Shown here piece after piece: positions 8,191 to 33,408 of a stretch of 56,426 bases of DNA. Under the pieces are notes generated by a model. It ran no database searches, was not told where the DNA came from, and saw only the letters and a list, made by a program, of their open reading frames with translations. Each line of letters opens with the position of its first letter. Positions within the stretch are counted from its first letter, which is position 1. The translations under genes were made by a program, and so were the position numbers. Source of the stretch: a virus (lineage: Duplodnaviria; Caudoviricetes); the IMG/VR virus record IMGVR_UViG_3300045733_000287, positions 1 to 56,426 of that record; one strand, given 5' to 3'.

Positions 8191-8263
8191 AATATAATAA
8201 TTAACATTATTTAACTATTTTTAACATTTAGTGACAATTCGGAATAGCTTCAATTACTGAATG

Positions 8264-8296
8264 AAAAAAGCCGGAAGGAAACTACCCCCTCCAGCC
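8264..8296 (-). terminator. Rho-independent terminator ending the late/lysis operon
   Basis: GGCTGGAGG...CCTTCCGGC hairpin followed by T6. Confidence 0.75.
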
Positions 8297-8326
8297 AAAC
8301 CTAACTAACCCTAATATGAAAAAACC

Positions 8327-9327: not shown

Positions 9328-9339
9328 AATTTTAAATAT

Positions 9340-10181: not shown

Positions 10182-10206
10182 ATCGTTATTTATAAATCAT
10201 CACAAA

Positions 10207-11490
10207 TTAATATTCAATACAAGCCTTTGCAGCACTATTGGTATGTTCATACTGACTAACAATCATTACTGTATTTTGCCAGCCGAACCCGATATTTGAT
10301 GAAGTAAGGCCTATTTCTGCAGATGCCTTATTACTCCAAACGACATCAACATTCGTATCCGTAGGAGCTGCTTCGTAATACGTATAAGACCCTCCACCAT
10401 TATCAGTGATATTGAATATTAATCCTCCCATTGGCCCCGTATCTCTTAAGGCATATTGCCCAACTGATCCGTTAAATTTCCTTGCAGGTCTTACACTATA
10501 TGCAGTATTTTTTGTTTGTACTGACGGATAAAGTCCGATATGAAATTTTAGACAAGTTGCTGTCGTTGCGGATGCCTCTGTTGAACTCCAATAATACCAA
10601 TCAGCTTGGAAGTCTCCCACGCCATACCAAAATAGTTCTGTAAACATTGCGAATAATTCACTAGAGGAAGGCAGGAACCAACCCCCCGCTGGTATTTCTT
10701 CCGTAGCAGCATACCCTGTTACAAAATCTGAATAACATGATGCGGCGTAAGTTCTTATTTTATAATAATAAGTCGTCCCGGGTGCCAAACCCCCATCAAT
10801 GTATCTTATCGCATTTGGAGTAGTCGTTTTAATTAATTCCCAGTCATTAACACCATCAGGCGAGCGATATATTTCAAATCCAATTTCATCCCAAGAATTA
10901 TCAAACCACGTCCATTCCATTTGAAAATATCGCTGGTCATTAACACCAAAACCCTCAGGAGGACGACAAGTTGATCCATAATTTCTAAAGTTTAAAAGGC
11001 TATTGCTAACATTACTGCCATCTATAAAATGATATTGCGGATAATATAAATAATCGAACTTATCTCCAACCTCAAAACATCTCGCCAAGTCCATTGTATA
11101 TGATGCCTGAGTAATTGTTGTGGCTGTACTGCCTGTTCCGTCTATTGTAGCCGGACTAAAAGACACGCCCGGAGTATTGCCGGTGAACGTACAAACGCCA
11201 CCTCCACTGTTCGCTAAAGTGACACCCGGGTAACTTGTTGAATATGATGTAACGAAATTGGCTACCGTTGTGGCTGCATTGGTATTCCAGATCATTGCAT
11301 GAGAACCGCCGTTACAAGTGACCGTGCAGTTAGCAGGATAGCCGCTCTTTGTTACCTGATCAACTTGAGCAACCGCATCCGGCCTGACAGTATTGGCAAC
11401 ATTAAAGAGGGAAAACGTCTCAGTATTTGGCACCTGAGCAAATGAGCTCAGGCAAAATAAAAGTGATAATATTAGTAGCTTACTTCTCAT
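10207..11490 (-). CDS. Signal-peptide protein with FN3 and DUF1566/Lcl C-type-lectin-like domain (putative adhesin)
   Basis: W.DNS..E.GFEIYRS..Y.D.GL.PGTTYYYKIR (FN3); WFLPS..EL, YWSSTE, VRPARKF. Confidence 0.75.
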   Translation of the reverse strand: MRSKLLILSLLFCLSSFAQVPNTETFSLFNVANTVRPDAVAQVDQVTKSGYPANCTVTCNGGSHAMIWNTNAATTVANFVTSYSTSYPGVTLANSGGGVCTFTGNTPGVSFSPATIDGTGSTATTITQASYTMDLARCFEVGDKFDYLYYPQYHFIDGSNVSNSLLNFRNYGSTCRPPEGFGVNDQRYFQMEWTWFDNSWDEIGFEIYRSPDGVNDWELIKTTTPNAIRYIDGGLAPGTTYYYKIRTYAASCYSDFVTGYAATEEIPAGGWFLPSSSELFAMFTELFWYGVGDFQADWYYWSSTEASATTATCLKFHIGLYPSVQTKNTAYSVRPARKFNGSVGQYALRDTGPMGGLIFNITDNGGGSYTYYEAAPTDTNVDVVWSNKASAEIGLTSSNIGFGWQNTVMIVSQYEHTNSAAKACIEY

Positions 11491-14400
11491 GTCTCTTTCC
11501 TTTTTTGTAAAAATACCAGTCCCTTTTTACCTGCCTGTCATTTGCCTTTTCAAGTTCTGATACTCTGTTTTCAAGTTCTGCTATTTTGATAACAAGCAAT
11601 TCTATATAATTAACTGACTTTATCCCTGCTCTATCTGTTCTGACTAATTCCGGTGCGATTAATTCCAAGTCCTGAGCGATGACCCCATAATGAACAGTCT
11701 TTAGATCTGATTTCATATTGAATTGAATAAAATCAATCTTGTCAAAATGTGGCAAGTCATTAATTGACCTAATATTTGTTTTGAGCCGTCTGTCTGATAA
11801 TTGAAAGTTTGTTGCTGTGACAATATGAGCCCCCATGTTCAAATCAGTCGTTGCCCCGGTATAAGGAACCAACCCGCTCAGACTTTGATCTCCTGAGTTT
11901 GTGCCTGTCAATCCTAAATCAGTTTTCAGAGTTGCCAGTGAATTGACTTCAGGAGCACCCGCCCCGGCTGTTTTCCTGTATATAAGTGAAGCAGTTGCCA
12001 TGTTGGCCATTTTAGCAAGCGTGACAGAGGCATTGGCAATTGTAAGGGCTGTTGATCCGGTAACGTCCCCCGTGTGTGTGGCATTACCCGTTACACTTGC
12101 AGAGCTCACCCATGCCGTACCGTTAGAAGTAAGAACATAACCGGACGTGCCGGGCGTTATTGTGCTATACGTTCCTGATCCTGTTCTGACCATTGCACCG
12201 TTTGCAGCAAAATCAGCATCGACAAGAGCCGTTCCAAGTGATGTTAGATAAGTGCTATTATCATAACTTACTGTCGTCCCGCTTACCTTAACAAAACCGG
12301 TGCCATTCAATGTTGCCTGAACAGGCGTCCATGATCTGGCTCCTATACTTGTTGATGTTAAGACATAACCTGTGACGGCAGGATTACCAAGAGCATCTTC
12401 TTTTGAGTCCCAATATGCTTTATCTCCTGCTGTTACATGCTTAACAGCATCGCTTATATGTGTATATGCTGCATCCCAATTAGCGTTAGTGCAGTTAGTT
12501 AATGTTCCGCTTGTCGGGGTTCCTAAAATTGGAGTCACTAGAGTTGGTGAGGTTGCCCGCACAGGTGCGCCCGACCCTGTTGCTGTCGTCCAAACCGGAG
12601 CAGCGGCACCGCCTCCGACAAGAACAGTAGTAGTTGCCCCGGCGGCCAATGCTGCATAAGCGTTATCAGCCGTGCCATATATAAGAGTGCCAGCCGCTTC
12701 TATTAATCCTGAGATACTTGTTAATGAAGCATGTAACGGCTGAATTCCTGCCTCGACAAGTGTGTTATTTACCCATGCTGAGCCGTTCCATTTAAGCAAT
12801 TCACCGCTTGAATTAGTTGTAATAGTTACATTTGAATGACCGTCTAATGTGTGATTTGCACCCATTCCGGCACTTGTCCAAGAAGTACCATTTGAAAGTA
12901 ATACATTTCCTGTCGTACCGGGTGCAACAAATGAAGGAGATCCCGACCCCTGACCAATTATAACACTTTCATCTGTTAAGGTTGTTAGCCCCGTGCCTCC
13001 CTGCGGAGTAGTCACCGGGTCATGATCAGTAAGCACGTTTGCCGAAGCATGCGGAAATGTCATGGTCGTGCCGTCCGTTCCGTCTAAAGTTAATGTATGT
13101 AAAGATGTAAATGTTTTCCCGGCTGTTATAGTTAAGGTATTTGTTCCATTATTAGTAATTGCTAACCCATTAAATAACGGAGAAATTAATGAAGTACCAA
13201 AATAACCCGTCCGCGGACGTGTTGCCCCACTTGCTCCAATATCATAGGTATTGTCTGTAAATGTTATATTACCATTGACAACTTGATTGCCGGTGAATGT
13301 TTGACCGGCATCTGTCCGGGCCAGAGTGGCATTCGCATTTGGTAATGTGAACGTTTTTTCAGCCGTTGTCGGGCCGGAAAACTTTGTAAAGCCATTTCCT
13401 GTGCCTCCGTATGTTGATGCGATTATCTGAGTAAGAGCCGCCGAACCGTTAAAGTTATTGCCGTAAATTGCACGTGTAGTGGTTAATGTAGCTGCACTAC
13501 CAGTTGTGTTTTGATTCCAAGTCGGAACGGCGATGGACTGCCAAATAGTACCATTGCTAACCATTAAGTTATTCGCATTGCCGGGGGCGACAACTTCCGC
13601 TTTTGAGTTCCATGCCGTTCTTTCAGCAGCAGAAATATGAACATCTGTACCGCCTGCAATACAAGCATGTGTATAAGCGGCATCCCAAAATCCATTTTCT
13701 GCAACTGAAACATGGACAGAATTTCCGCCGGCAATTTGACTATGAGTATAAGCGGCGTTCCATTGCGTTGATGTACCGTCAGTTGCTGTTATTACTCCAT
13801 TAACATCTAACTTTGTCCCGGGATTATTAGTCCCGATGCCAAAATTACCTGATTTAAAACGGGCGATTTCAGTAGTATAATTTACAAACCGAAGATCAAA
13901 ACTTCCACCTGATGAGTAATCTGTTTTTATAAATGAACCTGTTGCATCAGCACCGAGATAAAGAGAATTTTTTCTTGTGACATCATCCGTGCTTTCCATA
14001 GCTTTAATACCGCCATCCGAATGAACCTGCAGTTTACTTGTTGGGCTTGCAGTACCGATACCAACATTTCCGCCATTAAAATAACTACCTCCTGATGCAT
14101 TTATTAAAACATTTAACGCATTTGAAACGTCATACATGAAAAATTGAGAGTTGCCGCTGACATTTTCCCTGAACTTGAATAAATAATTAGTATTGGCGCT
14201 ATTGATCCCAGCGTATAAATCATTTGAAACGCCAGCCGATTTAACGGTAGGTAGTCCGGTAAATGCAGGACTTGCCGACATTGCAAAAGTTGATCCTGTT
14301 CCAGTCTGTGAGGCTATTGAAGTGGCATTACCGACGGAGGTTATCGGGCCCGTTAGATTAACGGATATTGAAACAGGGATTTTATCCCATGTAGCACCGT

Positions 14401-15142
14401 TATACATCATTTGATCACCTACCGCAAGAGTGACATTTCCGGAATGAGTATCAACTGTTCCGGCGACTGTGCAAGTATAATAATCACCCAGAGTGCCAGT
14501 ACCGTCTGTCAGTGCCGGTGAGCCATGACCGCCACCGCTTGCATCATAAGCCCCTTTGTATTGTGCCGAAGAAGTAACGGAAGTCCATTCACCCGCTCCT
14601 GTGGTGGCATTGGTGCATTTCCAAAAATAACCAACCGTAGCGCTTGTGGGTATATTAATTGCCGGAGTTGTAATTTTAGTCGTGAATGTCGGATTATCAA
14701 CCGGAGCCTTTAAAGCCAACTGATCATATGTTAATTTTGCAGATGGATATTCCGTATCTGTGGAACTGCCTGAAATTGAAGTAACTTTATTTGACTTATC
14801 TTCTTTTAGTGTTCCTTTATAAACAGAAAAATAGCCTTTATTAACAATTGAATCCGTCTTTAATTTATAAATAGAAACATTGACAGTATCTCTGTTATCA
14901 ACCCTTGCAAAAGTAGTATCAGAACCAACTATGTCAGTTATAAGTGTCCACCATATCTGACCTCTTGGTAATTTTGACCACCCATAAGTAGTGCCTTTAT
15001 ACATCCAAATTGTACTATCAGGAGTATAGAATTTAAACGAGTAAGTCGGTAGTGACTTAAAATTAACCCCTGTCGGGGGGACGTCCTGAGATTTTGTCAG
15101 AATGGATATAAAAAGAAATAAGATTATTAAAAGTTTTTTCAT
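11480..15142 (-). CDS. Tail fibre with C-terminal peptidase S74 intramolecular chaperone
   Basis: G/T/S-rich body; GNVGIGT repeats; LSDRRLKTNI..GVIAQDLE..PELV..VNY then coiled coil. Confidence 0.85.
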   Translation of the reverse strand: MKKLLIILFLFISILTKSQDVPPTGVNFKSLPTYSFKFYTPDSTIWMYKGTTYGWSKLPRGQIWWTLITDIVGSDTTFARVDNRDTVNVSIYKLKTDSIVNKGYFSVYKGTLKEDKSNKVTSISGSSTDTEYPSAKLTYDQLALKAPVDNPTFTTKITTPAINIPTSATVGYFWKCTNATTGAGEWTSVTSSAQYKGAYDASGGGHGSPALTDGTGTLGDYYTCTVAGTVDTHSGNVTLAVGDQMMYNGATWDKIPVSISVNLTGPITSVGNATSIASQTGTGSTFAMSASPAFTGLPTVKSAGVSNDLYAGINSANTNYLFKFRENVSGNSQFFMYDVSNALNVLINASGGSYFNGGNVGIGTASPTSKLQVHSDGGIKAMESTDDVTRKNSLYLGADATGSFIKTDYSSGGSFDLRFVNYTTEIARFKSGNFGIGTNNPGTKLDVNGVITATDGTSTQWNAAYTHSQIAGGNSVHVSVAENGFWDAAYTHACIAGGTDVHISAAERTAWNSKAEVVAPGNANNLMVSNGTIWQSIAVPTWNQNTTGSAATLTTTRAIYGNNFNGSAALTQIIASTYGGTGNGFTKFSGPTTAEKTFTLPNANATLARTDAGQTFTGNQVVNGNITFTDNTYDIGASGATRPRTGYFGTSLISPLFNGLAITNNGTNTLTITAGKTFTSLHTLTLDGTDGTTMTFPHASANVLTDHDPVTTPQGGTGLTTLTDESVIIGQGSGSPSFVAPGTTGNVLLSNGTSWTSAGMGANHTLDGHSNVTITTNSSGELLKWNGSAWVNNTLVEAGIQPLHASLTSISGLIEAAGTLIYGTADNAYAALAAGATTTVLVGGGAAAPVWTTATGSGAPVRATSPTLVTPILGTPTSGTLTNCTNANWDAAYTHISDAVKHVTAGDKAYWDSKEDALGNPAVTGYVLTSTSIGARSWTPVQATLNGTGFVKVSGTTVSYDNSTYLTSLGTALVDADFAANGAMVRTGSGTYSTITPGTSGYVLTSNGTAWVSSASVTGNATHTGDVTGSTALTIANASVTLAKMANMATASLIYRKTAGAGAPEVNSLATLKTDLGLTGTNSGDQSLSGLVPYTGATTDLNMGAHIVTATNFQLSDRRLKTNIRSINDLPHFDKIDFIQFNMKSDLKTVHYGVIAQDLELIAPELVRTDRAGIKSVNYIELLVIKIAELENRVSELEKANDRQVKRDWYFYKKGKRHEK

Positions 15143-15825
15143 GATTTCGATATTAAAATATACCCGGTTAGTTCTTCCTGTAAATCAAAAAATATAGTGT
15201 CAATCAACCCGTCAACTTTAGTAAATTGTGGCATTTGTTGGAGTTGGTATTCGGTATTTGCATCAACTGTAATTATACACCTGACACCTGGATTTTCTCC
15301 GAAGTCTTCCGCATAATTCAGAGTTTTAGCAGCATCTTCAGGGTCAACTTGTTCAACCTGATAGTCTTCTATAATTGGTTGTAATAAAGCTGTAAATGGT
15401 ACCTTTTTTACATTCGCATCATTTCCCCAAAGAAGTGCCATTTCGTATTTATGAAGATTTGCAAGAGCCAAGACAGGGTGAAGATTCTGAAGATTGTCGG
15501 GAGCCAGATAAAGACCCCTGCCTTTAAATACTGATTTATAGATTATTGCTGTCTGCCCGGCTGTCGGACATTTACCAGTGCGGAAATCATCAGATACATC
15601 AACCGTATTAGTATCAACTGCAATGATCGAATAAGGAACCCCAACGTAATCAATAAGATAATAACCTATTTCCTTTTGATTTGCTCCGGGGTTATTTGTG
15701 TCAATTGCTTTTACGGTTAGTCGATAAGTAGCTGCATCCTGTACCGTTTCTCTTGTAAGTTGGAAAACATTTAAAGCAAGGGTGCGCCAGGCAACAACGG
15801 GATTATATTTCGAGGCTATACTCAT
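15139..15825 (-). CDS. Tail-region structural protein
   Basis: 228 aa; position in the tail module. Confidence 0.6.
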   Translation of the reverse strand: MSIASKYNPVVAWRTLALNVFQLTRETVQDAATYRLTVKAIDTNNPGANQKEIGYYLIDYVGVPYSIIAVDTNTVDVSDDFRTGKCPTAGQTAIIYKSVFKGRGLYLAPDNLQNLHPVLALANLHKYEMALLWGNDANVKKVPFTALLQPIIEDYQVEQVDPEDAAKTLNYAEDFGENPGVRCIITVDANTEYQLQQMPQFTKVDGLIDTIFFDLQEELTGYILISKS

Positions 15826-16592
15826 TTAAACGTTAAGTTTTGCTGTGCCAAATGATTCTTAATTCTCTTTTCTGCAATATCAAAATACTTTTCATCTTTT
15901 TCCATACAAATATAATTCCGGTTTGTATTTATACAAGCTATTGCAGTAGTGCCACTTCCGGCACAATTATCTAAAACTAAATTCCCTTCATTGGTATAGG
16001 TTTTGATAAGATATTCAAATAAGAGTACGGGTTTTTGAGTGGGGTGGAATCGTTGTTTTTTGAATTGATTATTAACCTCTAATGGAAACTCTAAAATTGA
16101 TTTTGGCATTCTAAGTTCAGTCATATTTATTCTTTGTCGTGATTTTATATTTCCATATACTTCACCCGGCAAAGTCTCAAAATCATAAGAGCGATTAAAC
16201 CTATTAGATTTACGGTTAATTTTAATAGGGTTGTAAATTGGTATGTTTTTATAGAATACTAATATATTTTCATGCTCCTTTATTGGTTGCGTTTTCGCTG
16301 TCATAAAATTACCTCCTCTTTTTTTATCCCAAATCCATTCATATTTAAACATTTTAATATTTGACATTACCAAGGCACTTGTAAAGGGCTGTGAGGCTGT
16401 TAAAACTATTGCACCATTATCTTTAATAACTCGCTTGTATTGTTCCCAAAGAGGCTCAAAAGGTATTATAACATCCCATTTACAGGCAGTAGTTCCATAA
16501 GGCAAATCACAAAGAATCATATCAATACTCTTATCAGGAATTAGTGGCATTAACTCCAAGCAGTCACCAATATATGTTTTATTCAACTTCAT
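15822..16592 (-). CDS. Beta-class N4/N6 DNA methyltransferase
   Basis: DLPYG; HPTQKP; LDNCAGSGTT. Confidence 0.92.
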   Translation of the reverse strand: MKLNKTYIGDCLELMPLIPDKSIDMILCDLPYGTTACKWDVIIPFEPLWEQYKRVIKDNGAIVLTASQPFTSALVMSNIKMFKYEWIWDKKRGGNFMTAKTQPIKEHENILVFYKNIPIYNPIKINRKSNRFNRSYDFETLPGEVYGNIKSRQRINMTELRMPKSILEFPLEVNNQFKKQRFHPTQKPVLLFEYLIKTYTNEGNLVLDNCAGSGTTAIACINTNRNYICMEKDEKYFDIAEKRIKNHLAQQNLTFK

Positions 16593-17266
16593 TATTTAAA
16601 TATCAGTTCAATTCTTATTGCAAGTAATGTCGGAGCAAGTCCTTCAATCAGGACCGTTAATCCGTTTCCAAGTATCCCGGAATATGAGGAGTTGAACGGT
16701 ACTAATAATCTTTCATTTGAGCCGTCAATCTCATATACCTTCACATCAACTATTTTCTTTCCGGTAAGAGTATGGGTAACGAGCAGATTAGTAGTGCTAT
16801 TTGCAGCAATTGTCCATCCAGTTGGATAATCATCGCCTTCAGTAGCAGCTGCCACTCTTGCGGCAACGGTTGTCTGTGCGGTCAGGTCAATTGAATAGAT
16901 ATTAATCGCTCCGGAAGTATTTATAGCGTCTACTGCAGCATCCAGTACATTAACAGCGGCCATAGCTTCAGCCAGTGCATCTTCTACATTAGCGGCATCA
17001 TAAAGATTACCTGTATCATCTATTAAGACCTGTTCTGCATCTTGCAGGCTTCCGGCAGCCAATGCTGTAAGGCTTGCCATATCTTCAGAAAACATGTAAA
17101 TAACCCCGTCAATATTTACCAGTAATCCCGGGCAGCGTGAACCGATTGGAATACCGGCCAGCACTTCGGCTTCATCGGTCCATGGAGCACCTTCATTCAA
17201 ATATCTCTCATCAACCGGGCTTTGAGTGGCTGGAAAAAATCCTATTACAATAGTTCCTGTTGGCAT
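16592..17266 (-). CDS. Tail-region structural protein
   Basis: Acidic Ala-rich 224 aa with NVEDALAE motif. Confidence 0.6.
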   Translation of the reverse strand: MPTGTIVIGFFPATQSPVDERYLNEGAPWTDEAEVLAGIPIGSRCPGLLVNIDGVIYMFSEDMASLTALAAGSLQDAEQVLIDDTGNLYDAANVEDALAEAMAAVNVLDAAVDAINTSGAINIYSIDLTAQTTVAARVAAATEGDDYPTGWTIAANSTTNLLVTHTLTGKKIVDVKVYEIDGSNERLLVPFNSSYSGILGNGLTVLIEGLAPTLLAIRIELIFK

Positions 17267-17268
17267 GG

Positions 17269-18450
17269 CTAAAACTTATAAATTACTGTAAATGCTGTTA
17301 CTGAAGCTAATCGCTTCAAAGTGTATATCGTATAACTAACCGGGCTGCCTTCAACTGTAAAAACATAAGTTGATTTTGCAAATCCTGAGATTATTTCAAA
17401 CCCAGAAGGATCCAGAATACTCGTTAAGTCTCCGAATGTAGCCGGGTAAGCAAAGCAGAACCGGGCATCGGTCATTGTGTATTCTAATGTCTGATCTTCT
17501 TTGACCGCATCAATCGGAGTGATTAACTTAACTTCAGTGTCATTTGGTGCGGCACTTGTGACTATTCCGACATACATCGGCGTTCCGGCAATTGGTGGAG
17601 CGGTAACGCCTTCGGATATTCCTATACTATCAACATTTATTCCGATTGCATTTTTCTGAGTTAATTTCATAGAAATCTGATATAATGTGCTGCCGCCAAA
17701 TCGATCCTGCGATATTTCTCCTGATTTGATATACTGAACACCATTGACCATAAATATGTCAAGGCTTGAAGCCATTCCGAGACGTGCTGCCATGTAATCA
17801 GGAATTCCGCCAGTCTTTAGTACCCTTCCGGAATAAAATACTGCAGATAGTATTGTTTTGCTTTGAGATCCTTCAAGTACTTCGCTTTCGTCCGTATCAT
17901 TCGGATCAATATCAATTGCATCAATAAAGAAGTCAAGGTATTTGCCGGTACTTGTAAGAATTGACCAGTCTATAAACCTGTCATCAAGATCTGATTCGAT
18001 CCTGTCAAGGTTGGTATATTTGATATATTTTACGGTCCCTTTTGCAAGTTCCGCTGTAAGATCATAAACATAAACTGGCTCGCTTGTTAAAACATCTGAT
18101 CCCTGAGTTGCTTTGAAATATACTTTCTTATCATAATATGCAGAATCTAAGTTAATTACAAAATTGGTGTAATACCTGATATCAGAACTGCCATAACTTT
18201 TATCGTATGATTCTGTAATTGATTCAATTTCAGTAGTTCCGCAATATGATTTCAGAACAATATCAGTTGCCGCATCGGATTCAAACTGAAGGTATAAGAC
18301 ATGATCTTTGTTAAACTTCTGATAATAAGGCATTACTTTATTATTTCCCTGATACCTATTAGCATGAAGCGTGTTCCACATGTTCGGGTAAGTGTTCGAC
18401 GTTGGAACATTTTTAAAAGTGATGCTATTTAAAATCGAACTGGCTATCAT
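17269..18450 (-). CDS. Tail tip / baseplate protein
   Basis: Second gene after the tape measure; beta-rich. Confidence 0.55.
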   Translation of the reverse strand: MIASSILNSITFKNVPTSNTYPNMWNTLHANRYQGNNKVMPYYQKFNKDHVLYLQFESDAATDIVLKSYCGTTEIESITESYDKSYGSSDIRYYTNFVINLDSAYYDKKVYFKATQGSDVLTSEPVYVYDLTAELAKGTVKYIKYTNLDRIESDLDDRFIDWSILTSTGKYLDFFIDAIDIDPNDTDESEVLEGSQSKTILSAVFYSGRVLKTGGIPDYMAARLGMASSLDIFMVNGVQYIKSGEISQDRFGGSTLYQISMKLTQKNAIGINVDSIGISEGVTAPPIAGTPMYVGIVTSAAPNDTEVKLITPIDAVKEDQTLEYTMTDARFCFAYPATFGDLTSILDPSGFEIISGFAKSTYVFTVEGSPVSYTIYTLKRLASVTAFTVIYKF

Positions 18451-20630
18451 GATACTGGTGGTATATATTTTTCTATAATCGTCAACTCTGCTTTGTCTTC
18501 ATTATTCTTTTTCTTCAGGCTTAATAAATACCCTGAAATTGTGTCGCTGAATGTCAAATATCCCAAAGGATTTGCTGATAATAATTCCAAGTCAGTCTGG
18601 GTAAATAGACATTCAATTGTATGTTTCATCGGTTTAAAGATCGGATCAGCCATGGACGAAACAAGGATATCATCACTCTCAATGATTGTATAATCATCAA
18701 TCCCTGCCGTTCCTGTCGTCTCAAGTGAACTATCCTTATCAGTCTTTTGAAACCTTAATACACTCGCAGCGTCAAGCTTTGTCATTCCGGATTTAATCCT
18801 GTTACCCTGCCTGATCAGCATCCGGGACGGCGTGAAATACCTGTTTAAGAGATCATCTTTAAAAAGACTCGAGCCGTTATCAACTGATATATTCTCAGCT
18901 TTTTCAGGCTTCCAATCGTATGTTGCATCAACCTGAGTTTTGATAATGAAAATATCGCTATCTCCTTTTATATCTCTTGTCTCATCTTCTGTTATAGGGG
19001 TTGACAGGTTATCCAGAATTCCTTTCGTGTCGCCCCTCAGAGGAGAAATGTTCTCAAACTTAGTAGCGGTATTCATTATTGAAGTGCGCCTGTTTGTTGT
19101 GTTCGGTTCGGCCCTCCCGTTTGCGCTCAGGTATTCAAAGCTATCAAAGCCTGACTTCAAATCATTCGGGACCAGTTCCGGCATCACTGCTGACTGGATA
19201 TCGTATTTATTGATTCGTGATGACAGGTCCAGAACTTCAACATCCTGAAAGAAATGAGCGTACTCCTCAATCCTTACCCTCTGATAGTTTTCTCCGGATA
19301 ATGTCTCAATAGAATATCCGATATTCCAGATAGCTTTGAGTGACTTGAATAGATCTTTAAAGTTCAATACAAGTGAGCTACCTTCTGATTCTGGCAATGC
19401 GGGATCATATAAATTTAATCCTCTTTGATTGAGTCCTGATTGAATATGAGCGAACCTTAATTGGTTCTCTGCTATATAAGCACCTGCAGATGAGTTGTAA
19501 ATTATGCCAGTCCTGCCAAAGAAATCTGAATAAAATGGATATTGAACATCCAGAACATGCTGCAGGATCCTTTCAGTTGCTTCATACAGCGGGAATCCTT
19601 CAGTGAGTGTAGACGGAGAAGAAGCAACTTTTTGAGTAACTTCCAATCGCTGAAATACAAAATATGCTGAATATGTTGCATTTATGCCGGGGGAATATAT
19701 GACAAATTTTAAACTATTCCCTTTATCACATTTAACCGTTTTAGTTCCTTCTAAGTAATATATCTGATTGAGCCCTCCAAAACCACCAAGGTCATAGGTT
19801 TCTATTATAGTGCCTGCGGGGTCTGTCTCAAGTAAATGTATAAACCACGGGAATGATCCAACATATCTATCAGTTACATTGACTTCAACCGCCCACCTGA
19901 TTACTAACTCATCATAATTATATAAAGCATCTTTAAAAAACGAGGGGACTGATAATAAATTAGTCTGCTTTGTGACATATTCAACTGTCTGTATTTCCAG
20001 AAATTGGCTCGATACTTTATTTAAAGGTATTGAAGTATAACTAATCGTGCCGTTTATATGGTTCAACTGAAAGCCACTAAGGGAACGCAACATTTTTGCA
20101 TAATAAAATATGTCCGTTGCATCATAGTGTAACCCTTTTAAAAGACCGTTGTAATCTGTAATATTGAAATTACCTATTGACTTTAACTTGGTAATGTCAA
20201 TGTCAATATCCTGCCTGTTATCTAACTTAGTTTGGACTGAGCTGTTGATAGCCTTAACCCTTACACCAAAATTGAACTTACCGACCTTTACCGTCTCATA
20301 AAAGTTGAAATTAACATCAAATGAGTTCGGGAATTCCACATACGCACGTGTAGCGGATTTCCACCAGTAAATTCTGAGTGTGCATTTTGCATTGAGTTCA
20401 TAAGCCTCAAACAAATCTTTAAGCATCTTAGCACCATTCCCGACAAAGGTCAAGGAATCGCATAAAAAAGAAGTAAACACTCCTCCAACTTCCAAGTCCC
20501 TCTTGACTTCAAGTGAGCCTGACTTCCATTCTAATGGCTCCGGGTTGCATGTAACAATATCCGTGGCACTTACTAGCCTGAATAAGTACTTTGCCGGGGT
20601 GTTCGATAATATGTCGTCCGGGAATGCCAT
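18447..20630 (-). CDS. Tail tip / hub protein
   Basis: 727 aa directly after the tape measure. Confidence 0.6.
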   Translation of the reverse strand: MAFPDDILSNTPAKYLFRLVSATDIVTCNPEPLEWKSGSLEVKRDLEVGGVFTSFLCDSLTFVGNGAKMLKDLFEAYELNAKCTLRIYWWKSATRAYVEFPNSFDVNFNFYETVKVGKFNFGVRVKAINSSVQTKLDNRQDIDIDITKLKSIGNFNITDYNGLLKGLHYDATDIFYYAKMLRSLSGFQLNHINGTISYTSIPLNKVSSQFLEIQTVEYVTKQTNLLSVPSFFKDALYNYDELVIRWAVEVNVTDRYVGSFPWFIHLLETDPAGTIIETYDLGGFGGLNQIYYLEGTKTVKCDKGNSLKFVIYSPGINATYSAYFVFQRLEVTQKVASSPSTLTEGFPLYEATERILQHVLDVQYPFYSDFFGRTGIIYNSSAGAYIAENQLRFAHIQSGLNQRGLNLYDPALPESEGSSLVLNFKDLFKSLKAIWNIGYSIETLSGENYQRVRIEEYAHFFQDVEVLDLSSRINKYDIQSAVMPELVPNDLKSGFDSFEYLSANGRAEPNTTNRRTSIMNTATKFENISPLRGDTKGILDNLSTPITEDETRDIKGDSDIFIIKTQVDATYDWKPEKAENISVDNGSSLFKDDLLNRYFTPSRMLIRQGNRIKSGMTKLDAASVLRFQKTDKDSSLETTGTAGIDDYTIIESDDILVSSMADPIFKPMKHTIECLFTQTDLELLSANPLGYLTFSDTISGYLLSLKKKNNEDKAELTIIEKYIPPVS

Positions 20631-22984
20631 TAATTTCTCATTAGCCTGTTTAAGTAGATTGTTTGTGAATGACTTGAAGCCTGACCTATCATTCTATTCT
20701 CTTTGTCGAAAATCGCAACCGGTTTGTTTTGAATTGCTTTTCTGACAGATATCATCTCATTCAAAAGCCGTTCATCCGTTATCTGATAGCCGCCTACTTT
20801 CCTGTCTGCCATTCCTATCATCTTTTCCGTTTCCGGATTAGAGAATATCTGAGCTCCTTTGAATTTTGAACCTTCGAAGTATGTAGGCTTTTCAGCTAGT
20901 GCGATATCACCGGAACGCATGAACATTAACTCAGGGCCCGCCTCTCCAAATATACCCCTCTGATCTGCTGACTGAGTACCTTTTGCATATTTCGGAATAG
21001 GCTGAGCTGCAACTAATCCGGCTTGTAATAACCCCATTGCAAGAATCCAGGGAATCATCGGGTTTGCTGCAAACAAAGGAGGCATTGCTGCGGCTGACAT
21101 AACCCCTTTAAATGTGTCAAGAGCTATATTAAATTCAGCCTGTAATTTATCAGCCTTTGCCTGTTTGGTTTTTATTGCATTAGATTTCTTTTCATATTCC
21201 GCTTCGATCTTTTCCTTTTGCGACTCAGTAAGTTTTTTATTGGAGAGTTTCGCCTCTTTTTCTTTGTCGAGATTATTTAATTCCTGATCAAATTTTGCAG
21301 CATTGAGATTGAAAATACCGTTAATAGCTTCGGATGCAAGTTGAAATTCATTATTTCTTAGATCTTCTGCAATTTGTCTTCTTTCCTCAGCCGCATTTCT
21401 TTCATATTCCGTTATTGCATCAGTTTTTTTCTTAGTGTCCTCTGTGATTTGTTTGTTTTGCTGAAGACCGGTCTGTACCTTTTTCATTCCGGATATCTCA
21501 GCTATCTTATTAAATAACTCAAGATCCGTTATCTCTTTATTTTTTTCTTTCTCAACCGACTTATTCCATTTATCCGTCAATGTCTTTTTTAATTTATCTT
21601 CAGCCTCTAAATTATGTTCTTTAAGTTCGGCAACCGCTGTTATAGCAGCTAGTTCCTCTTTATAAAGTTCTTTTTTAGCGGCTGCAATAGTTTTTGCAAC
21701 TCTTATCTGCCGTCCTGCGCTCTCGGTCTCTAATTCAATACTTCTTGCAAGAGCTTGCTGCATTTTTAAATCATCTTCATCTCTAAATTGTCCTGCTTTT
21801 TTCTTTTCATCATTTGCGATAGCGAGTAAAAGTATTTTTCTGTTCTGATTTTTTATTTCATCATCAGTAACTTTATTTTCCAGATCCAATGCTGTTTGTA
21901 ATGCGGCAATCCTTACTTCATGTGATTTAGTTTCGTCAGCATATAATAACCGGGCTTCTTTGATTTGAAGGTTTGCCTCAGCTCTTGGAACTATCATTCC
22001 CCTTTCAAGGTCTTCAAGTTGCTGCATCCCTAAAGTATATTTCTCCATTGCAAATGAAGCCATATCCATCATGGTTCCTACCTCTGTCCATGCAGGACTG
22101 ATCATAGTTGCTAATACAGTCCAAAACTTACCGGCTTTCTTTTCTGGCTTATCAAAAGCGTCAGCCATTTTCTCACCGCCGGAAATAAGTTCACCAGTAA
22201 GGACGCTAAATGCGGCCTTTAATCCCGCAACTTTTCTTTCAAGTAATTCAGCACCTTTTTCAGATTTTGTAAAGAATGCAACTAATGGAGCTGATATTGC
22301 CAAAACGCCCGCAGCGACTAAGGCTCCTGTTGGTCCTATTGCTGCTAATTTAGTTGTGAATCCTTTTACAGAACTAGCGGCACTACCAAGCGGACCCGGT
22401 AAGCTTTCTACTGCATCCGCAATATTTTTAAATGCCCCCGGATAATTACCAACATTCATTTTTAGTTTTACAAGCTCGCTGGAATTAGCCCTTATGGTAT
22501 TGGTATTCTTGTTTATTGTATTATTTATTTCATTATTTCTTTTACTACCCTGCTCAGTTTCAAGGTTTAATTTACGCTGTTCGGCATAGAGTTTTTTGTT
22601 CTCAGCGGTTAGTTTTTCGATACTTCCTATAGCTGCCTTTTCCAGTGTTACCTGATCTTTAAGAGCTTTTGTAGCCTCCTGAGTAGCTATTCTATTTTGA
22701 ATGATAGTCTTTAGCCTTTCATCTTCTGTCTGTTTTAATTTCGCTTCACTAGCCGCCAACTGCTTACCGAGTGCATCCAATTTCTTACCCTCATCGGTTG
22801 TTTGTTTTTGTGCCTTTCCTAAATTGTCAAATGAAATAACATTATCTTTTATCTCTTTACTACTGTCGGAAATAGTCTTAACGAGCGTTAAATATCTCTC
22901 TGATGTTGTATTTAATGTATCATTTAACGAGGTAAGCCCCTTGTTAATCTCATCTATTTGCGCTATCTCCTGACTTTTTGCCAT
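20630..22984 (-). CDS. Tape measure protein
   Basis: Long helical A/K/E-rich protein; NVGNY, hydrophobic segments, QPIPKYAKGT..GEAGPE. Confidence 0.85.
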   Translation of the reverse strand: MAKSQEIAQIDEINKGLTSLNDTLNTTSERYLTLVKTISDSSKEIKDNVISFDNLGKAQKQTTDEGKKLDALGKQLAASEAKLKQTEDERLKTIIQNRIATQEATKALKDQVTLEKAAIGSIEKLTAENKKLYAEQRKLNLETEQGSKRNNEINNTINKNTNTIRANSSELVKLKMNVGNYPGAFKNIADAVESLPGPLGSAASSVKGFTTKLAAIGPTGALVAAGVLAISAPLVAFFTKSEKGAELLERKVAGLKAAFSVLTGELISGGEKMADAFDKPEKKAGKFWTVLATMISPAWTEVGTMMDMASFAMEKYTLGMQQLEDLERGMIVPRAEANLQIKEARLLYADETKSHEVRIAALQTALDLENKVTDDEIKNQNRKILLLAIANDEKKKAGQFRDEDDLKMQQALARSIELETESAGRQIRVAKTIAAAKKELYKEELAAITAVAELKEHNLEAEDKLKKTLTDKWNKSVEKEKNKEITDLELFNKIAEISGMKKVQTGLQQNKQITEDTKKKTDAITEYERNAAEERRQIAEDLRNNEFQLASEAINGIFNLNAAKFDQELNNLDKEKEAKLSNKKLTESQKEKIEAEYEKKSNAIKTKQAKADKLQAEFNIALDTFKGVMSAAAMPPLFAANPMIPWILAMGLLQAGLVAAQPIPKYAKGTQSADQRGIFGEAGPELMFMRSGDIALAEKPTYFEGSKFKGAQIFSNPETEKMIGMADRKVGGYQITDERLLNEMISVRKAIQNKPVAIFDKENRMIGQASSHSQTIYLNRLMRN

Positions 22985-23595: not shown

Positions 23596-23645
23596 TTCTC
23601 AACTATTGTTTTATCATTTTCTGACATATTAACTGTTTTTAAAAA

Positions 23646-26634: not shown

Positions 26635-26684
26635 GATCTTTGTTTTTAAGTGAATATTTTATATATCTTTTTAATCATTTCATC

Positions 26685-28561: not shown

Positions 28562-28573
28562 AAACAGGGTATT

Positions 28574-28604
28574 AAAAAAGGGGTCATTTTATCATTCGAC
28601 CCCT
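28574..28604 (-). terminator. Rho-independent terminator after the major tail genes
   Basis: AGGGGTC..GACCCCT followed by a T-tract. Confidence 0.7.
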
Positions 28605-28613
28605 CTATTTAAA

Positions 28614-28799
28614 CTAAGCGTCTCCGCCCTTTTTAGCTTTCGGAACCTTGACCCCCAAAGCCTTTGCGATTTCTTCAGGTGTCTCAGTTGCATGACCCTT
28701 AACAGAGTGTTCATAGAAATTAAGAAACTCTTTCCATGTCCAGTCTTTCCAGTTAACTGAAGGATCTGTCGTGTTGATATCAACTTCCCCGAATTTCAT
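28614..28799 (-). CDS. Small protein after the major tail protein
   Basis: 61 aa; coupled to the upstream stop. Confidence 0.6.
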   Translation of the reverse strand: MKFGEVDINTTDPSVNWKDWTWKEFLNFYEHSVKGHATETPEEIAKALGVKVPKAKKGGDA

Positions 28800-29689
28800 T
28801 ATACGGGAATATTAAGAACGTTTGACAGGTAGGTTACATGAGGTGCAGCAATTGTCTCAGCCTGTATCTCAAAGTCACCGGTCATCTTAGCTGCTCCATT
28901 GAGGAAGGTCAGTGTATAAAGCCCTAAAGCTGCCGATGTTGCTGTTATAGCTGTGGCTGCTCCTGCGGCATCAGTACTAACTGATCTGACAGCCCATTGA
29001 GCGTAAGCCGTGAGCCCGGCATAAGGAAGCCCGGAAACCCTGTGAGTGGCTTTCAAAACAACAGTACCGCCTGAACTTTCGTAATCGGTTATGATCTCAA
29101 TGTTGATACCGACCGGTACAGATTCAGATAATTCCCTGCGATCAAAAGCAGTTCTGATGATCTGGTAATTTTTGATCTGTTCAACATCGCTGAACATGAT
29201 ATCGAACGGACAGGCTTTCTGTTTACCGTCCCCTCCTGCTTTCGGGAAGTTGTAAGACACGAACATACGGCCATTAAAACCGACCACAAGCCCGGCAGAA
29301 TTAAGCGGAGCCATGAGATTACCGTCAGCAAGGACCATTATAAAGTCATATTCTTTTGCATCGGCCCCAAACCATGTGCGATAGTCTTCCCAGCTCATAA
29401 AAGCATAACCGGTGAACTCAGGCTCAAAATCCCTGGTCTTTTCTTTCAGGCCGGTATTGGCAGTTGTGAACTCCGGGGCTGTGGTCTTTTCCTCAAAGCC
29501 CCTTGCGAGGTCAATGTAAGTGCCAACAATTGCCGCTGATGTGGCAGGATTGATGTGTGTCTGCCACCCTGCTAAAGTCTTAGCGAGCGCAACCGTTGTA
29601 GTAGTTCCCTTGTCAAGAACAATCATGCCTTTGACATCAGGAAGAAAGTCTTTACTGGCTCCATTACCAGCATATTTCAGTGTTCCCAT
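28799..29689 (-). CDS. Major tail (tube) protein
   Basis: 296 aa; position after head-tail genes; followed by a terminator. Confidence 0.6.
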   Translation of the reverse strand: MGTLKYAGNGASKDFLPDVKGMIVLDKGTTTTVALAKTLAGWQTHINPATSAAIVGTYIDLARGFEEKTTAPEFTTANTGLKEKTRDFEPEFTGYAFMSWEDYRTWFGADAKEYDFIMVLADGNLMAPLNSAGLVVGFNGRMFVSYNFPKAGGDGKQKACPFDIMFSDVEQIKNYQIIRTAFDRRELSESVPVGINIEIITDYESSGGTVVLKATHRVSGLPYAGLTAYAQWAVRSVSTDAAGAATAITATSAALGLYTLTFLNGAAKMTGDFEIQAETIAAPHVTYLSNVLNIPV

Positions 29690-29693
29690 TTTT

Positions 29694-30197
29694 TTAGTTT
29701 TTTATCATTAATAGATTTTCAAATTTTATTTCAATAGCTGATAATATATCTAACTGACCAGCATCATTATTTAACCAGAAAGGATGATCATTGACCGGGT
29801 ACCGGAAATCTGATAAGAGCGAAAAGTTTTTATGATAACCCATTTCGCTCAGTAACAGCTCGAAGATCGGATATAAGACAGCCTTCAGCGTGTTGGTATA
29901 ATGCTGTTCGGTTGTGAAATCCCTGTTTGTCAAAGTGCAGATAAACACCCTCGGAGAGATGTTATAAAGACATTCTTCAATCCATCGCTGTGTGTTTTCG
30001 GCGTTATCCCAGACAAGCCAGACCAAAGGGTATTTTTCAATCTGGTTATTGTCTTTCGTCTTACACAGTTCAAGTAATTCTAAATAAGTCCCATAGCAGT
30101 AATAAGGATGCAGATTATTAGTCAGATCATTTCTGAGTCTGGACGCCTCGACAACCTCTTTAAAGAGATCAGGAAAATATTTAAACTCTGCACTCAT
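29694..30197 (-). CDS. Putative tail terminator / head-tail joining protein
   Basis: KYPLVWL motif; directly upstream of the tail tube. Confidence 0.5.
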   Translation of the reverse strand: MSAEFKYFPDLFKEVVEASRLRNDLTNNLHPYYCYGTYLELLELCKTKDNNQIEKYPLVWLVWDNAENTQRWIEECLYNISPRVFICTLTNRDFTTEQHYTNTLKAVLYPIFELLLSEMGYHKNFSLLSDFRYPVNDHPFWLNNDAGQLDILSAIEIKFENLLMIKN

Positions 30198-30820
30198 ATA
30201 CCGAAGGCATTAATATTCCATTGTGGAGTGAAGATCCAGTCCGGGTAATCTTCCTTATTGGCATAAAGAAAGTTATAAGCAGAAGCATCACAGTTGAAAA
30301 CATACGATAGATTTGTCCCTTTTATTGGTCCTGAATAAAACTGTTTGTAATCAGGCGGCATCTTTCCGTATAGTTCTCTCATGCGTTCCCATGCAGCAAT
30401 CATTTTAGGCAGTGAAGAAGCTCTTATCCCTTTCATGGTATCTGTCAATACGATACCGAGTTGAGATAAATGAGTGACTTCACGCTCAACATACTTGAAG
30501 TAAGTATAGTAAGCTATCAGTGACTGTTTTGCAGTGTTTTTTAATCCCTCCCATTTCAGAGTAATCTCCTCACCGCCAAACTCATGCGTAAATTCAGCAC
30601 CGTTAACCAGGTCGATATAGATCTGAGTTACCGGGACACCTCCTTCACCTGTGAGGTCAGCAATAAGAAGCGAATACAACTTATAACCAAGTAACTGAAT
30701 CAGTATTTCTTTTTCGTACTGAGTAATTGCCTGAGCTATTGCAGTCGCATTCGAATTCACTCCTGATAAGTTCGGGATGTTTATTTCACCTACAAAATAT
30801 GTGCTGTCAATCAGTGACAT
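30194..30820 (-). CDS. Head-tail adaptor protein
   Basis: LIDSTYF.GEI.IP..YEKEIL..LLG..LY..W.GL..SLIAYY; position. Confidence 0.6.
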   Translation of the reverse strand: MSLIDSTYFVGEINIPNLSGVNSNATAIAQAITQYEKEILIQLLGYKLYSLLIADLTGEGGVPVTQIYIDLVNGAEFTHEFGGEEITLKWEGLKNTAKQSLIAYYTYFKYVEREVTHLSQLGIVLTDTMKGIRASSLPKMIAAWERMRELYGKMPPDYKQFYSGPIKGTNLSYVFNCDASAYNFLYANKEDYPDWIFTPQWNINAFGI

Positions 30821-30823
30821 ATA

Positions 30824-31225
30824 TTACTTTTTAACTCTCTTTACTGCTGCCTTTTTGGTGGCTTTTGGTTTTCTGGAAGCTTTTGCCCTTTTTGGTTTTT
30901 CGGCGACCTTCATCTTTTCGGCTGGTTTTACCTTAACTTCTTCAGCTTTCTTAATTTCCTCAGTAGCAAGTTTTTCAGCCTCAATCTTTTCTTCCTCCTG
31001 TTTTTTCAGAAGGTCGGCTTCTTCCTGATCCTTTAACTTCTTTTCTTCAGCAGCCTTTAAATCGGCCTCCTCTTGTTCTTTTAAGAGACGGGCTTCTTCC
31101 TCCTGCTGTTCTTTTAAAGCTAGTTCATCAGTATCTTCAATAGGGCTTGCGGAGCCTTTTCTTGCAAGAATCTCCGCAATCTTACCGTGAAGTTTCCTTC
31201 CTGTTCTATTGGATATTGCTTCCAT
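30824..31225 (-). CDS. Charged low-complexity protein with K/A-rich histone-like tail
   Basis: E/K coiled coil then KPKATKKAAVKRVKK. Confidence 0.7.
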   Translation of the reverse strand: MEAISNRTGRKLHGKIAEILARKGSASPIEDTDELALKEQQEEEARLLKEQEEADLKAAEEKKLKDQEEADLLKKQEEEKIEAEKLATEEIKKAEEVKVKPAEKMKVAEKPKRAKASRKPKATKKAAVKRVKK

Positions 31226-31228
31226 AAT

Positions 31229-31516
31229 TTATTTTTTAATCAGTTCTTTTCGTTTTTCAATTCCATAAACTACTTTCAAGGAGTCCAACTGCTCAATAGT
31301 GACTACCTTTTTTAAATCTTCACCCACTTTTTTGATTATGGCATTAAGATTGTCGTTTTGTTTTTCCAGTTCCTGGCAATAAATAACCGAATTCACAAGT
31401 GCATCTTTAACCTTTTGTAAGTCATTGACTTTCTGTAAATCATTGGCATTCTGTTGCGCCATAGCCATAAATGGCAGGAAAACTAAAAAAATAATTAACA
31501 GCTGGATCCTTTTCAT
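31229..31516 (-). CDS. Small coiled-coil protein with signal peptide
   Basis: MKRIQLLIIFLVFLPFMAMA-QQ. Confidence 0.7.
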   Translation of the reverse strand: MKRIQLLIIFLVFLPFMAMAQQNANDLQKVNDLQKVKDALVNSVIYCQELEKQNDNLNAIIKKVGEDLKKVVTIEQLDSLKVVYGIEKRKELIKK

Positions 31517-31545
31517 AGTAGTTTACTTTATTAAATTACTCTCTT

Positions 31546-33408
31546 TTATGGCTCATCCTGAGTTGCAAGCATAATCCAATAAGCAGTACCATTAATGTAG
31601 ATCTTAAGACCCGCAGCAACTGCCCCTGTCGCACCTGTCACAACCATGGTTGCATCAGATGTAACCATATTAGCAGGGACACTGATAGACATTGCACCCA
31701 TGTTAGATAATTGAGCTGCTGCTGTTGCGGCAGTTCCGCTAACAACAATCCCTAGTGGTGCTATCTGAGTGTATGCCCGTGTATCTGTTGCGGCACCTCC
31801 GAGAAATACTTCAGCCATAGTGCCATAATAAGTACCTGCATTTGTCAATACTCCATCCGGTAATACAAGATTACCACGCATGCCCGCTGTTAAGCCAGTG
31901 TTTGATGCTGTCGAGGCTTCAAGTTCAACTGAAAATGCACCTCCTGTTAATGCGGTGGTACCCGAAGCATCTCCCATTAGATAAGCACGGCCACGTATTA
32001 CGTCACCACTTGGAGCAGCTCCCGCCCCTCCTGTTGCACCGTAATTCATGTTCAAATAATAGCCTGTCAATTCATGCGATGCTGTTGAAGAAGTCGAACT
32101 CAGATAGTACGAGAAAGCCTTACCTCCTGCCGATCCTAGTGTCTGGGTTGCACTTGTAGCTGTCCCCGCGCCTCCAAGTAGTCCGGCACTTACAACAACA
32201 GTCCCTCCGGCAATAGCTTGATTAATTGCACCGGCGACACTAATACTTCCATCAGTGGCATTACTAATGGTCTCCCCATTTTGTAACCTTAAATCAGCCG
32301 TGTAAGCCTTATGACCTCCTGAAGTACCTCCGTTTGCACTGAAAGCATAAGAGGCTGTTTGTGTCGCACTTGAATTATTGAAAGCTTCAAAAGCCACTGC
32401 TTCCGTAGAGGTTCCTCCTGCTCCGCCGTCAAGTGATGCCTCAAAGGCTCGCATCGTGGTAGCTGTCTTATTTTTCGCATCAACAGAAGCATAAACCCCC
32501 GTAAGCCTACCTATAGTATTACCGGCATTGGAAGCATCGGCAGCTCTTGCTTTCGCTTCAATACCGTAAATAACTCCACCAGTAGCCGCGGACGTTCCAT
32601 TTGTCGCCACAATTCCGGCTCCAATAAGATTACCTGTAAGTGCGGTTCCTGCAACCTGAGTAATGGCTTCATTTAAACCCTTATCGCCTGCTGCCACTGA
32701 ATTAGTAACTACATTATCAATTGTTCCTGTAGATGCTAAATTACCAACTAGAGTTACAGTCCCATTTGATGTAATGGCAGTAGTTCCGTCAGTTGATCCA
32801 AATACCACCGGGCCAGTTGAACCAGCTCGATAAACAGTACTTGTAGGGTGTGCAGAATTGTCCTTTGTAGTAATTGTAACCGTCCCTGCATTTGATCTTG
32901 AAACTGTCAATGTTCCAGAATTCGCCGGAATATCAAAAGCATTAGCCGTTCTGACCTCGAATGCTGTTACTTGAGTACATTGAGTTGTACCACTAGCGAC
33001 ATAAGAAACTTTCAGATAATTGTAATTAATAGGAGTGGTCGCCGTAATTGTGACCGGGTTATTCGCCACCGTCTCCCATGTTACAGCCGTTCCTATCGGG
33101 TGCCAGTTATCAGTAGAAGTTGCTCGACCTCTTAAAGTAACCACAACAGATGGAGTGCCTGAGTGCGCGACAAGCGATGTCGTGACCGTCTGATTTTGCA
33201 TGTACTTCTGAATGTTGGTAATAGCAATCACCAGCGAGTCACCTTGTGGAATAAACGAACCCCCTTTACCTGCGAGAGAATCAGCAGCAGTAAAGGTGAA
33301 TGGCCACGCAAGCGAATTTGCCCCGTTTCTTATATTACCGGTTTTATCCTGTGCTATACTGAAAGCAGTTATGCTTATCAGCGCTAGAATTATAAGTATT
33401 TTCTTCAT
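31546..33408 (-). CDS. Gly/Ala/Thr-rich head-associated (decoration/fibre-like) protein with signal peptide
   Basis: Immediately downstream of the capsid gene; MKKILIILALISITAFSIA-QD. Confidence 0.6.
   Translation of the reverse strand: MKKILIILALISITAFSIAQDKTGNIRNGANSLAWPFTFTAADSLAGKGGSFIPQGDSLVIAITNIQKYMQNQTVTTSLVAHSGTPSVVVTLRGRATSTDNWHPIGTAVTWETVANNPVTITATTPINYNYLKVSYVASGTTQCTQVTAFEVRTANAFDIPANSGTLTVSRSNAGTVTITTKDNSAHPTSTVYRAGSTGPVVFGSTDGTTAITSNGTVTLVGNLASTGTIDNVVTNSVAAGDKGLNEAITQVAGTALTGNLIGAGIVATNGTSAATGGVIYGIEAKARAADASNAGNTIGRLTGVYASVDAKNKTATTMRAFEASLDGGAGGTSTEAVAFEAFNNSSATQTASYAFSANGGTSGGHKAYTADLRLQNGETISNATDGSISVAGAINQAIAGGTVVVSAGLLGGAGTATSATQTLGSAGGKAFSYYLSSTSSTASHELTGYYLNMNYGATGGAGAAPSGDVIRGRAYLMGDASGTTALTGGAFSVELEASTASNTGLTAGMRGNLVLPDGVLTNAGTYYGTMAEVFLGGAATDTRAYTQIAPLGIVVSGTAATAAAQLSNMGAMSISVPANMVTSDATMVVTGATGAVAAGLKIYINGTAYWIMLATQDEP

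Follow-up and report, generated by a model that had tools for sequence, protein, structure and literature searches.

Conserved signal-peptide-like leaders on the tail fibre and three other late proteins of a tailed phage

Four late genes of an uncultured tailed phage (Caudoviricetes), here called p620, p95, S74 fibre and p427, encode proteins that begin with an N-terminal leader of signal-peptide design. They lie on the IMG/VR virus record IMGVR_UViG_3300045733_000287, which comprises 56,426 bases and has a completeness rating of 88%; this whole stretch is referred to as the window. The leaders are real and specific, and they are conserved traits of the four protein families. Judged from sequence, the proteins are very likely exported by the Sec pathway and cleaved by signal peptidase I. 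We favour the view that they are virion parts that mature in the periplasm and give this view about an even chance. The four genes are organized as follows:

31546-33408, minus strand: p620, leader MKKILIILALISITAFSIA followed by QD, jelly-roll domain A (~20-160), fibre-like extended region (to ~400) and variable C-terminal domain (~386-620)
33352-33408, minus strand: signal-peptide coding part of p620, 19 codons
31229-31516, minus strand: p95, leader MKRIQLLIIFLVFLPFMAMA followed by QQ, then a 75-residue helical core
11480-15142, minus strand: S74 fibre, 1220 aa, leader MKKLLIILFLFISILTKS followed by QD, conserved N-terminal domain of ~100 aa, fibre repeats and Peptidase_S74 chaperone
10207-11490, minus strand: p427, leader MRSKLLILSLLFCLSSFA followed by QV, fibronectin-like stretch, DUF1566/Lcl_C-like C-terminal domain and 9 Cys

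An earlier note on this DNA had drawn attention to these N-termini. All four open reading frames (ORFs) are present on the minus strand with the N-termini it quoted, the leader is followed by Gln in each, and a leader scan flags exactly these genes. To be flagged, an N-terminus must have an n-region of net positive charge, at least 9 uncharged residues whose best Kyte-Doolittle mean over 8 residues is 2.0 or more, and small residues at both -1 and -3; a polar residue near +1 is slightly favoured. Of 69 non-overlapping minus-strand genes, four were flagged; as controls, 229 internal-Met positions within these proteins and 58 antisense ORFs (60 aa or longer) yielded no flag. Capsid, portal, tube (a candidate) and tape measure, which the note had said lack leaders, are indeed unflagged. 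With the same scan, 0/20 late-region genes of the cultured Flavobacterium siphophage mumin6-1 were flagged. Because mumin6-1 and the controls gave none, the scan is not prone to over-calling, and the trait is not one that phages of this phylum share generally.

The Sec/signal peptidase I design, i.e. a positive n-region, a hydrophobic h-region and small residues at -3 and -1, is found in all four leaders. Gln occupies the likeliest +1 position in 4/4; the fibre site (TKS before QD) is a weaker one than in the other three, which have AxA-type sites. None of the four leaders ends in a lipobox ([LVI][ASTVI][GAS]C); in p427, the residues before Cys13 are LLF. Likewise, no C-terminal domain of the type IX secretion system (T9SS) was detected in the four proteins (NCBIfam scan, E up to 0.1) or among 66 p620-family members (Pfam). 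As there is neither a T9SS tail nor a lipobox, the four proteins would remain in the periplasm until lysis. A 139-aa protein of the early region (48021-48440) starts with MKKMITIIILTLYFQC, a leader that ends in Cys and is unflagged by the scan; it has weak NCBIfam matches to lytic transglycosylases (EmtA, E 4e-4).

Each of the four ATG codons is preceded by an in-frame stop 3-15 codons upstream. The next in-frame starts are codon 60 in p620 (inside domain A), 47 in the fibre, 20 in p427 and 17 in p95. The fibre ATG shares bases with the stop codon of the gene upstream (ATGA), and the fibre and p427 genes have 11 bases in common, which fits coupled late expression with the tail genes. The earlier note had asked whether the true starts might lie downstream of the leaders. 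A public gene call of the fibre does begin at Met47 (P0093, 1174 aa) and omits the leader. Residues 19-46, upstream of this Met, are conserved in homologues (Q-D-x-P-P-[TS]-G-x-[ND]-F-K-[ST]-[IL]-P-T), whereas Met47 itself is not (Val in P0096). Since this leader-proximal sequence is conserved, the true starts are not downstream.

These observations bear on two alternatives. In one, the leaders are unused, being wrong starts or chance hydrophobic N-termini on proteins that fold in the cytoplasm like ordinary virion parts. We consider this extremely unlikely: a public gene caller did omit the fibre leader and the leader calls carry no SignalP score, but in each of the four families homologues have leaders that keep the design while differing in sequence, with enrichment of Gln at +1, stops lie shortly upstream of each start, and both the internal-Met and antisense controls and the late genes of mumin6-1 came out empty. 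In the other, dual forms are made: one is exported from the first ATG, and a leaderless cytoplasmic form, started at an internal codon, is built into virions. In p427 an in-frame GTG at codon 20 (11431-11433) lies exactly at the predicted cleavage site, one p427 homologue begins at the mature N-terminus (see below), and the public call at Met47 can be read in the same way. A single GTG is, however, expected by chance often enough, Met47 is not conserved but residues 19-46 are, and the next in-frame start of p620 would cut into domain A. A leaderless second form of p427 from the GTG codon is possible but unsupported, and dual forms altogether appear very unlikely.

Homologues of p620 number 92, all unnamed; 67 are flagged as leader-bearing, 20 of these with Gln at +1 (Gln shares are rough). 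Retrieval based on the capsid protein yielded 14 loci, 10 of them with sequence downstream of the capsid gene. A leader-bearing gene directly follows the capsid gene in all 10 informative loci, over capsid identities of 41-81%. These post-capsid proteins (8 distinct, 145-521 aa) carry Gln at +1 in 9/10 cases, and the small ones are homologous to p620 domain A (hhalign 98.9% with leaders; 96.6%, E 6e-10, 88 columns without leaders). The family is modular, as the C-terminal domain is 77-88% identical where domain A is only 40-51% identical or has no separate match, and leaderless phage proteins share p620 domain B. Searches of Pfam and PHROGs assigned no family to p620 or p95, nor to the small post-capsid proteins and the leaderless homologues of domain B.

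The AlphaFold model of p620 (mean pLDDT 72.8) predicts a jelly-roll at residues 20-156, followed by a confident stretch without regular secondary structure to ~400. With Foldseek, the jelly-roll matches carbohydrate-binding modules and, in the PDB, jelly-rolls at E ~1e-4, while whole p620 matches phage S74 and collagen-like fibre proteins. Two features of decoration or cement proteins are found in domain A, namely a capsid-adjacent gene across relatives and a small beta-sandwich fold; an Atlas match to Bbp16 (score 0.81) is below the level that counts. Synteny and the predicted jelly-roll fold are thus the two grounds on which p620 may be labelled a decoration protein.

In the p95 family, 20 of 25 cluster representatives are flagged as leader-bearing, 13 of the 20 with Gln at +1 (these shares are rough as well), and the helical core is conserved. 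In a 136-aa metagenomic protein (P0335), the p95 core is joined to a p620-like leader plus the beginning of domain A; this suggests that p620 and p95 are neighbouring genes elsewhere too, or were fused by deletion.

The assignment of the fibre to the S74 type is borne out by a Peptidase_S74 match (PF13884) at residues 1116-1168 (E 4.7e-12, 46.4 bits against a gathering cut-off of 22), with SDRRLK (SDxxxK) at 1116-1121. Eleven fibre homologues align from the N-terminus and nine of them are flagged as leader-bearing; of the remaining two, one has the leader behind a 9-residue upstream extension and the gene call of the other begins at the cleavage site. The whole fibre as query had no match in five related records. 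Among fibres that share only the widespread KEDKSNKV motif, 3/35 are flagged; another 3 ORFs have an open 5' end. Because most motif-only fibres lack leaders, the leader belongs to the lineage and not to the motif.

For p427, described in the earlier note as an FN3-lectin with several Cys, the Cys are there (9 in total), whereas the fibronectin-like and Lcl_C/DUF1566-like stretches are indicated only by PHROG matches and a sub-threshold Pfam match; homologues carry PF00041 and PF07603. In all four homologues that cover at least 85% of p427, a leader precedes the mature start VPN[TN]E. P0215, a fifth homologue with 69% coverage, has no leader and begins MA-VPNNEAFSL, which corresponds to the mature N-terminus. 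The DUF1566 domain is also found in leaderless phage proteins.

The host to which such leaders would be addressed is indicated indirectly. Shine-Dalgarno-like words precede 7/85 genes, against 11.3 expected by chance, and the regions upstream of the genes are A-rich. Megablast gave as sole match a stretch of the DNA methyltransferase gene (15822-16592), 77.7% identical to Flavobacterium phages. Together with Gln after the cleavage site in 4/4 proteins, the absence of Shine-Dalgarno use and the methyltransferase similarity point to a Bacteroidota host, although none is proven. A prophage scan of a genome collection returned a single match, a 54.9-kb contig of a metagenome-assembled genome (MAG), and names no host because this contig itself looks like phage. 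The export put forward in the earlier note is well supported by these results: conservation marks the leaders as family traits, downstream starts are excluded, and both the Gln rule and the lack of Shine-Dalgarno use fit Bacteroidota.

Whether the exported proteins join the particle is considered here from their genomic surroundings. Nearly all genes of the window lie on the minus strand. Along transcription, the late region runs from large terminase, portal and capsid through p620 and p95 to neck and tail genes, then from tape measure through leaderless tip genes (727, 393 and 224 aa), a DNA methyltransferase and a leaderless 228-aa gene to the S74 fibre, p427, a small membrane protein and an endolysin-like protein. 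The neighbours concerned, with relatives denoted L (L062-L065) or G (G002 and G003, complete), are:

38501-39958: large terminase
35797-37152: portal (PF04860, E 1.5e-18)
33480-34838, minus strand: HK97-type major capsid protein (PF05065, E 8e-18), without leader, immediately upstream of p620
20630-22984: tape measure, without leader
16592-20630, minus strand: conserved tail-tip genes without leader (224, 393 and 727 aa), which lie downstream of the tape measure
15822-16592, minus strand: DNA methyltransferase gene, inserted in the tail module and absent at the same place in L062-L065
15139-15825, minus strand: leaderless tail-module protein of 228 aa, residues 5-134 homologous to a domain of the 1871-aa fibre of G002
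9340-10181, minus strand: lysis genes, next downstream of p427, for a membrane protein of 106 aa (holin candidate) and an endolysin-like one of 174 aa

In the four closer relatives L062-L065, homologues of the 727-, 393-, 224- and 228-aa genes are 51-79% identical to those of the window, and the 224- and 228-aa genes are adjacent. The sequence of L062 stops at the 228-aa homologue, so that the genes that follow were compared in L063-L065. There, the next genes are leader-bearing and encode 204-368 aa (1220 in the window), and they share only the ~100-aa N-domain with the window fibre. By sequence, a conserved N-domain with a variable distal part after conserved tip genes is the pattern of exchangeable receptor-binding proteins (RBPs). 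Three features expected of a virion receptor-binding fibre are found in these genes: they close the tail module, their N-domain is conserved together with the tip genes, and their distal part varies.

In the complete relatives G002 and G003 the plan is the same: the tape measure and large tip proteins are followed by a long fibre with leader (1871 aa for G002 and 1134 aa for G003), then by small leader-bearing neighbours and the lysis genes. Residues 5-134 of the leaderless 228-aa protein of the window match residues 21-144 of the G002 fibre, directly behind its leader (E 1.4e-9). A second match (E 5e-17) pairs the C-terminal domains of two further proteins, the leaderless 224-aa protein of the window and a leader-bearing one of 228 aa in G002. 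A complex prediction for the 228-aa protein with fibre residues 19-125 scored 0.00 with no control runs and counts neither way.

Leader-bearing genes were also observed on two further contigs, which represent other phage types. L028, a 62.7-kb contig, has three consecutive ones (4852-10866; 1361, 242 and 403 aa). L029, which has myovirus-like baseplate genes, encodes a 510-aa leader-bearing fibre (5950-7482) whose N-domain resembles that of the window fibre.

The main alternative, which we regard as possible if on the whole less likely, is that the proteins are exported and never join the virion, and act instead as periplasmic, host-envelope or lysis-released free proteins. They might serve as adhesins in the manner of Bdellovibrio fibres, exclude superinfection, or bind glycans and so clear or mask the receptors on debris. 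This alternative accepts the leaders as real. Binding domains are common to leaderless phage proteins (DUF1566 of p427, domain B of p620, the C-terminal domain of the 224-aa protein), so the leader-bearing version could be a soluble copy of a virion binder, and leaderless tail proteins able to bind a receptor are present in the window. Precedents can be cited as well: mosaic adhesive trimeric (MAT) fibres with the same layout as the S74 fibre work on the cell and not on a virion (PMC10769870), and genes of Porphyromonas gingivalis phages whose signal peptides follow the Gln rule (Q-rule) are read by the authors as envelope modifiers (PMC10367356).

Several results speak against proteins that stay off the particle. 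A route across the outer membrane was not found, since both the T9SS C-terminal domain and the lipobox are missing. Promoter-like sites (24 against 23.3 in shuffles) and terminator-like sites (8 against 5.9) are at chance level, the start codons overlap tail genes, and no integrase was seen among 10 further proteins scanned, which are part of the gene set. The position right after the capsid gene is kept across the whole range of capsid identity, a conserved N-domain with a variable distal part is typical of virion fibres, and the exported fibre of G002 begins with a domain that is a conserved tail-module protein in the window. A moron or lysogenic-conversion gene was considered and rejected on the same grounds (no own promoter or terminator above chance, start codons that overlap upstream genes, no integrase seen); lysogenic conversion is unlikely because no integrase occurs among the 10 further proteins. 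Of the two outcomes that the earlier note had left side by side, the data lean towards joining the virion (RBP-like modularity, the domain link with G002, the annotation of phage phi18:3 discussed below) rather than towards adhesins or decoys, and nothing tested supports receptor blocking.

If virion parts do mature in the periplasm, the following course can be proposed. The four genes would encode substrates of Sec and signal peptidase I in a Bacteroidota-type host, made late together with the virion genes. Their chains would be exported unfolded and the leader cut, after which the exposed Gln would probably cyclise to pyroglutamate. In the periplasm, the fibre would trimerise by means of its own S74 chaperone. 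The fibre and its lectin-like neighbour p427 most likely form an exchangeable receptor-binding appendage, and p620 would be a capsid-associated fibre anchored by its jelly-roll domain. Contact between the exported parts and the particle, itself built in the cytoplasm, would then come about only once the holin has opened the inner membrane, or in the lysate. In its full form, this amounts to a tailed-phage lineage that assembles in two compartments, with head and tail cytoplasmic, and with fibre, lectin partner and capsid fibre exported, pyroglutamate-trimmed, folded in the periplasm and docked after the holin breach. We put this forward tentatively, as somewhat short of an even chance; if true, it would be a step not described for Caudoviricetes.

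A number of points weigh against this course of events. Tailed phages assemble in the cytoplasm, and late joining of exported parts needs a step that, to our knowledge, has never been demonstrated. Virion incorporation is proposed here from sequence and gene order, and the leaders were called throughout with a purpose-written, rule-based heuristic and not with SignalP. Candidates for leaderless receptor binders exist in the window (a 478-aa protein with a tail-fibre PHROG match and the 727-, 393- and 224-aa proteins). No BLAST match to p95 was found in the related capsid-derived loci, and it has no obvious virion role. Possible reasons for export were also sought in the proteins themselves. 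Among the Cys of p427, only the pair Cys55/Cys59 and Cys424 are conserved, and because so few are, a need for disulfides is not evident. The Bacteroidota O-glycosylation motif D-[ST]-[AILVMT] is not enriched in the four proteins (7 seen, 10.1 expected; 44 seen and 41.5 expected in the other scanned minus-strand genes); the enrichment that would have offered a reason for export is absent. The mass spectrometry (MS/MS) evidence for phi18:3 is a record annotation only, and purified phage preparations can carry contaminants.

Some further features of the window were noted. After the endolysin gene, two membrane-protein genes (8327-9327; 243 and 90 aa) are spanin-like or holin-like candidates; neither has a family match. 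The early region encodes an FtsK/SpoIIIE-like protein whose N-terminal part resembles an exonuclease, and a PAPS-reductase-like protein (3980-6211 and 44536-45435). The end of the contig (54009-56426) is a diverged, gapped copy of its start (1-4481) with 83-97% nucleotide identity, suggestive of a circularly permuted genome whose assembly spanned two strain variants; since the end repeats the start, the unit genome would be nearer 54 kb. Neither p620 (tblastn, E 1e-3) nor the capsid protein (E 1e-10) had a match among 50,697 phage records, and p427 had one weak match in the same set; by these searches, no close cultured phage relative of the window was found.

Both outcomes would have consequences. 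If exported fibres join the particle, the cytoplasm-only assembly rule for tailed phages has an exception in a major host phylum, and host-range prediction, recombinant RBP expression and the engineering of Bacteroidota phages would have to take leader cleavage and folding in the periplasm into account. If they do not join it, the proteins represent a large, unrecognised class of phage-made envelope or secreted proteins that appear late in infection. Gene callers that skip the leader, as for this fibre, would mis-annotate the mature N-terminus if the exported fibres join the particle. The window itself contributes a syntenic post-capsid family and links between leaderless and leader-bearing domains.

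Genes with signal sequences in or beside tail genes are known from coliphages, namely Llp of T5 and Lom and Bor of lambda. These are small lipoproteins or outer-membrane proteins with roles in exclusion or host fitness; they are not fibre-like and lack a conserved N-domain with a variable tip. In the literature searched, in which subscription journals are incompletely covered, no signal peptides on tailed-phage fibres and no periplasmic maturation of virion parts were described, which does not prove their absence.

Sec/signal peptidase I substrates of Bacteroidota obey the Q-rule (PMC5837995, PMC10653852); they share the leader design and Gln at +1 with the window proteins but are cellular envelope proteins. 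The P. gingivalis phages encode five genes whose function is unknown, with Q-rule signal peptides (PMC10367356). Like the genes of the window, these are Bacteroidota phage genes whose products are predicted to expose Gln after signal peptidase I cleavage; unlike here, that paper deals with no fibres or capsid-adjacent proteins and draws no link to virion assembly. The MAT fibres of Bdellovibrio bacteriovorus start with a signal peptide, continue through a beta-rich N-domain (~130 aa) and a phage-like beta-helix, and carry an autoproteolytic S74 domain with SDxxxK (PMC10769870). This layout of signal peptide, conserved N-domain, fibre and S74 corresponds to that of the window fibre, and since MAT fibres do so, S74 fibres can mature after Sec export in a diderm. 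They differ in being cellular genes of a predator, outside a phage late operon, and the N-domains are likened by layout only.

A cultured parallel is the Cellulophaga phage phi18:3 (NC_021794). It belongs to another family, Pachyviridae, its proteins show no similarity to those of the window (BLASTP, E 1e-3), and its record is silent on leaders. As in the window, gp085-gp087 are consecutive late genes just upstream of the lysis genes, and their products start with a basic-hydrophobic leader followed by Gln. The record annotates these three, among 12 proteins so annotated, as virion, structural or tail protein 'based on experimental MS/MS proteomics analysis', and cultured Cellulophaga phages are where both outcomes can be tested.

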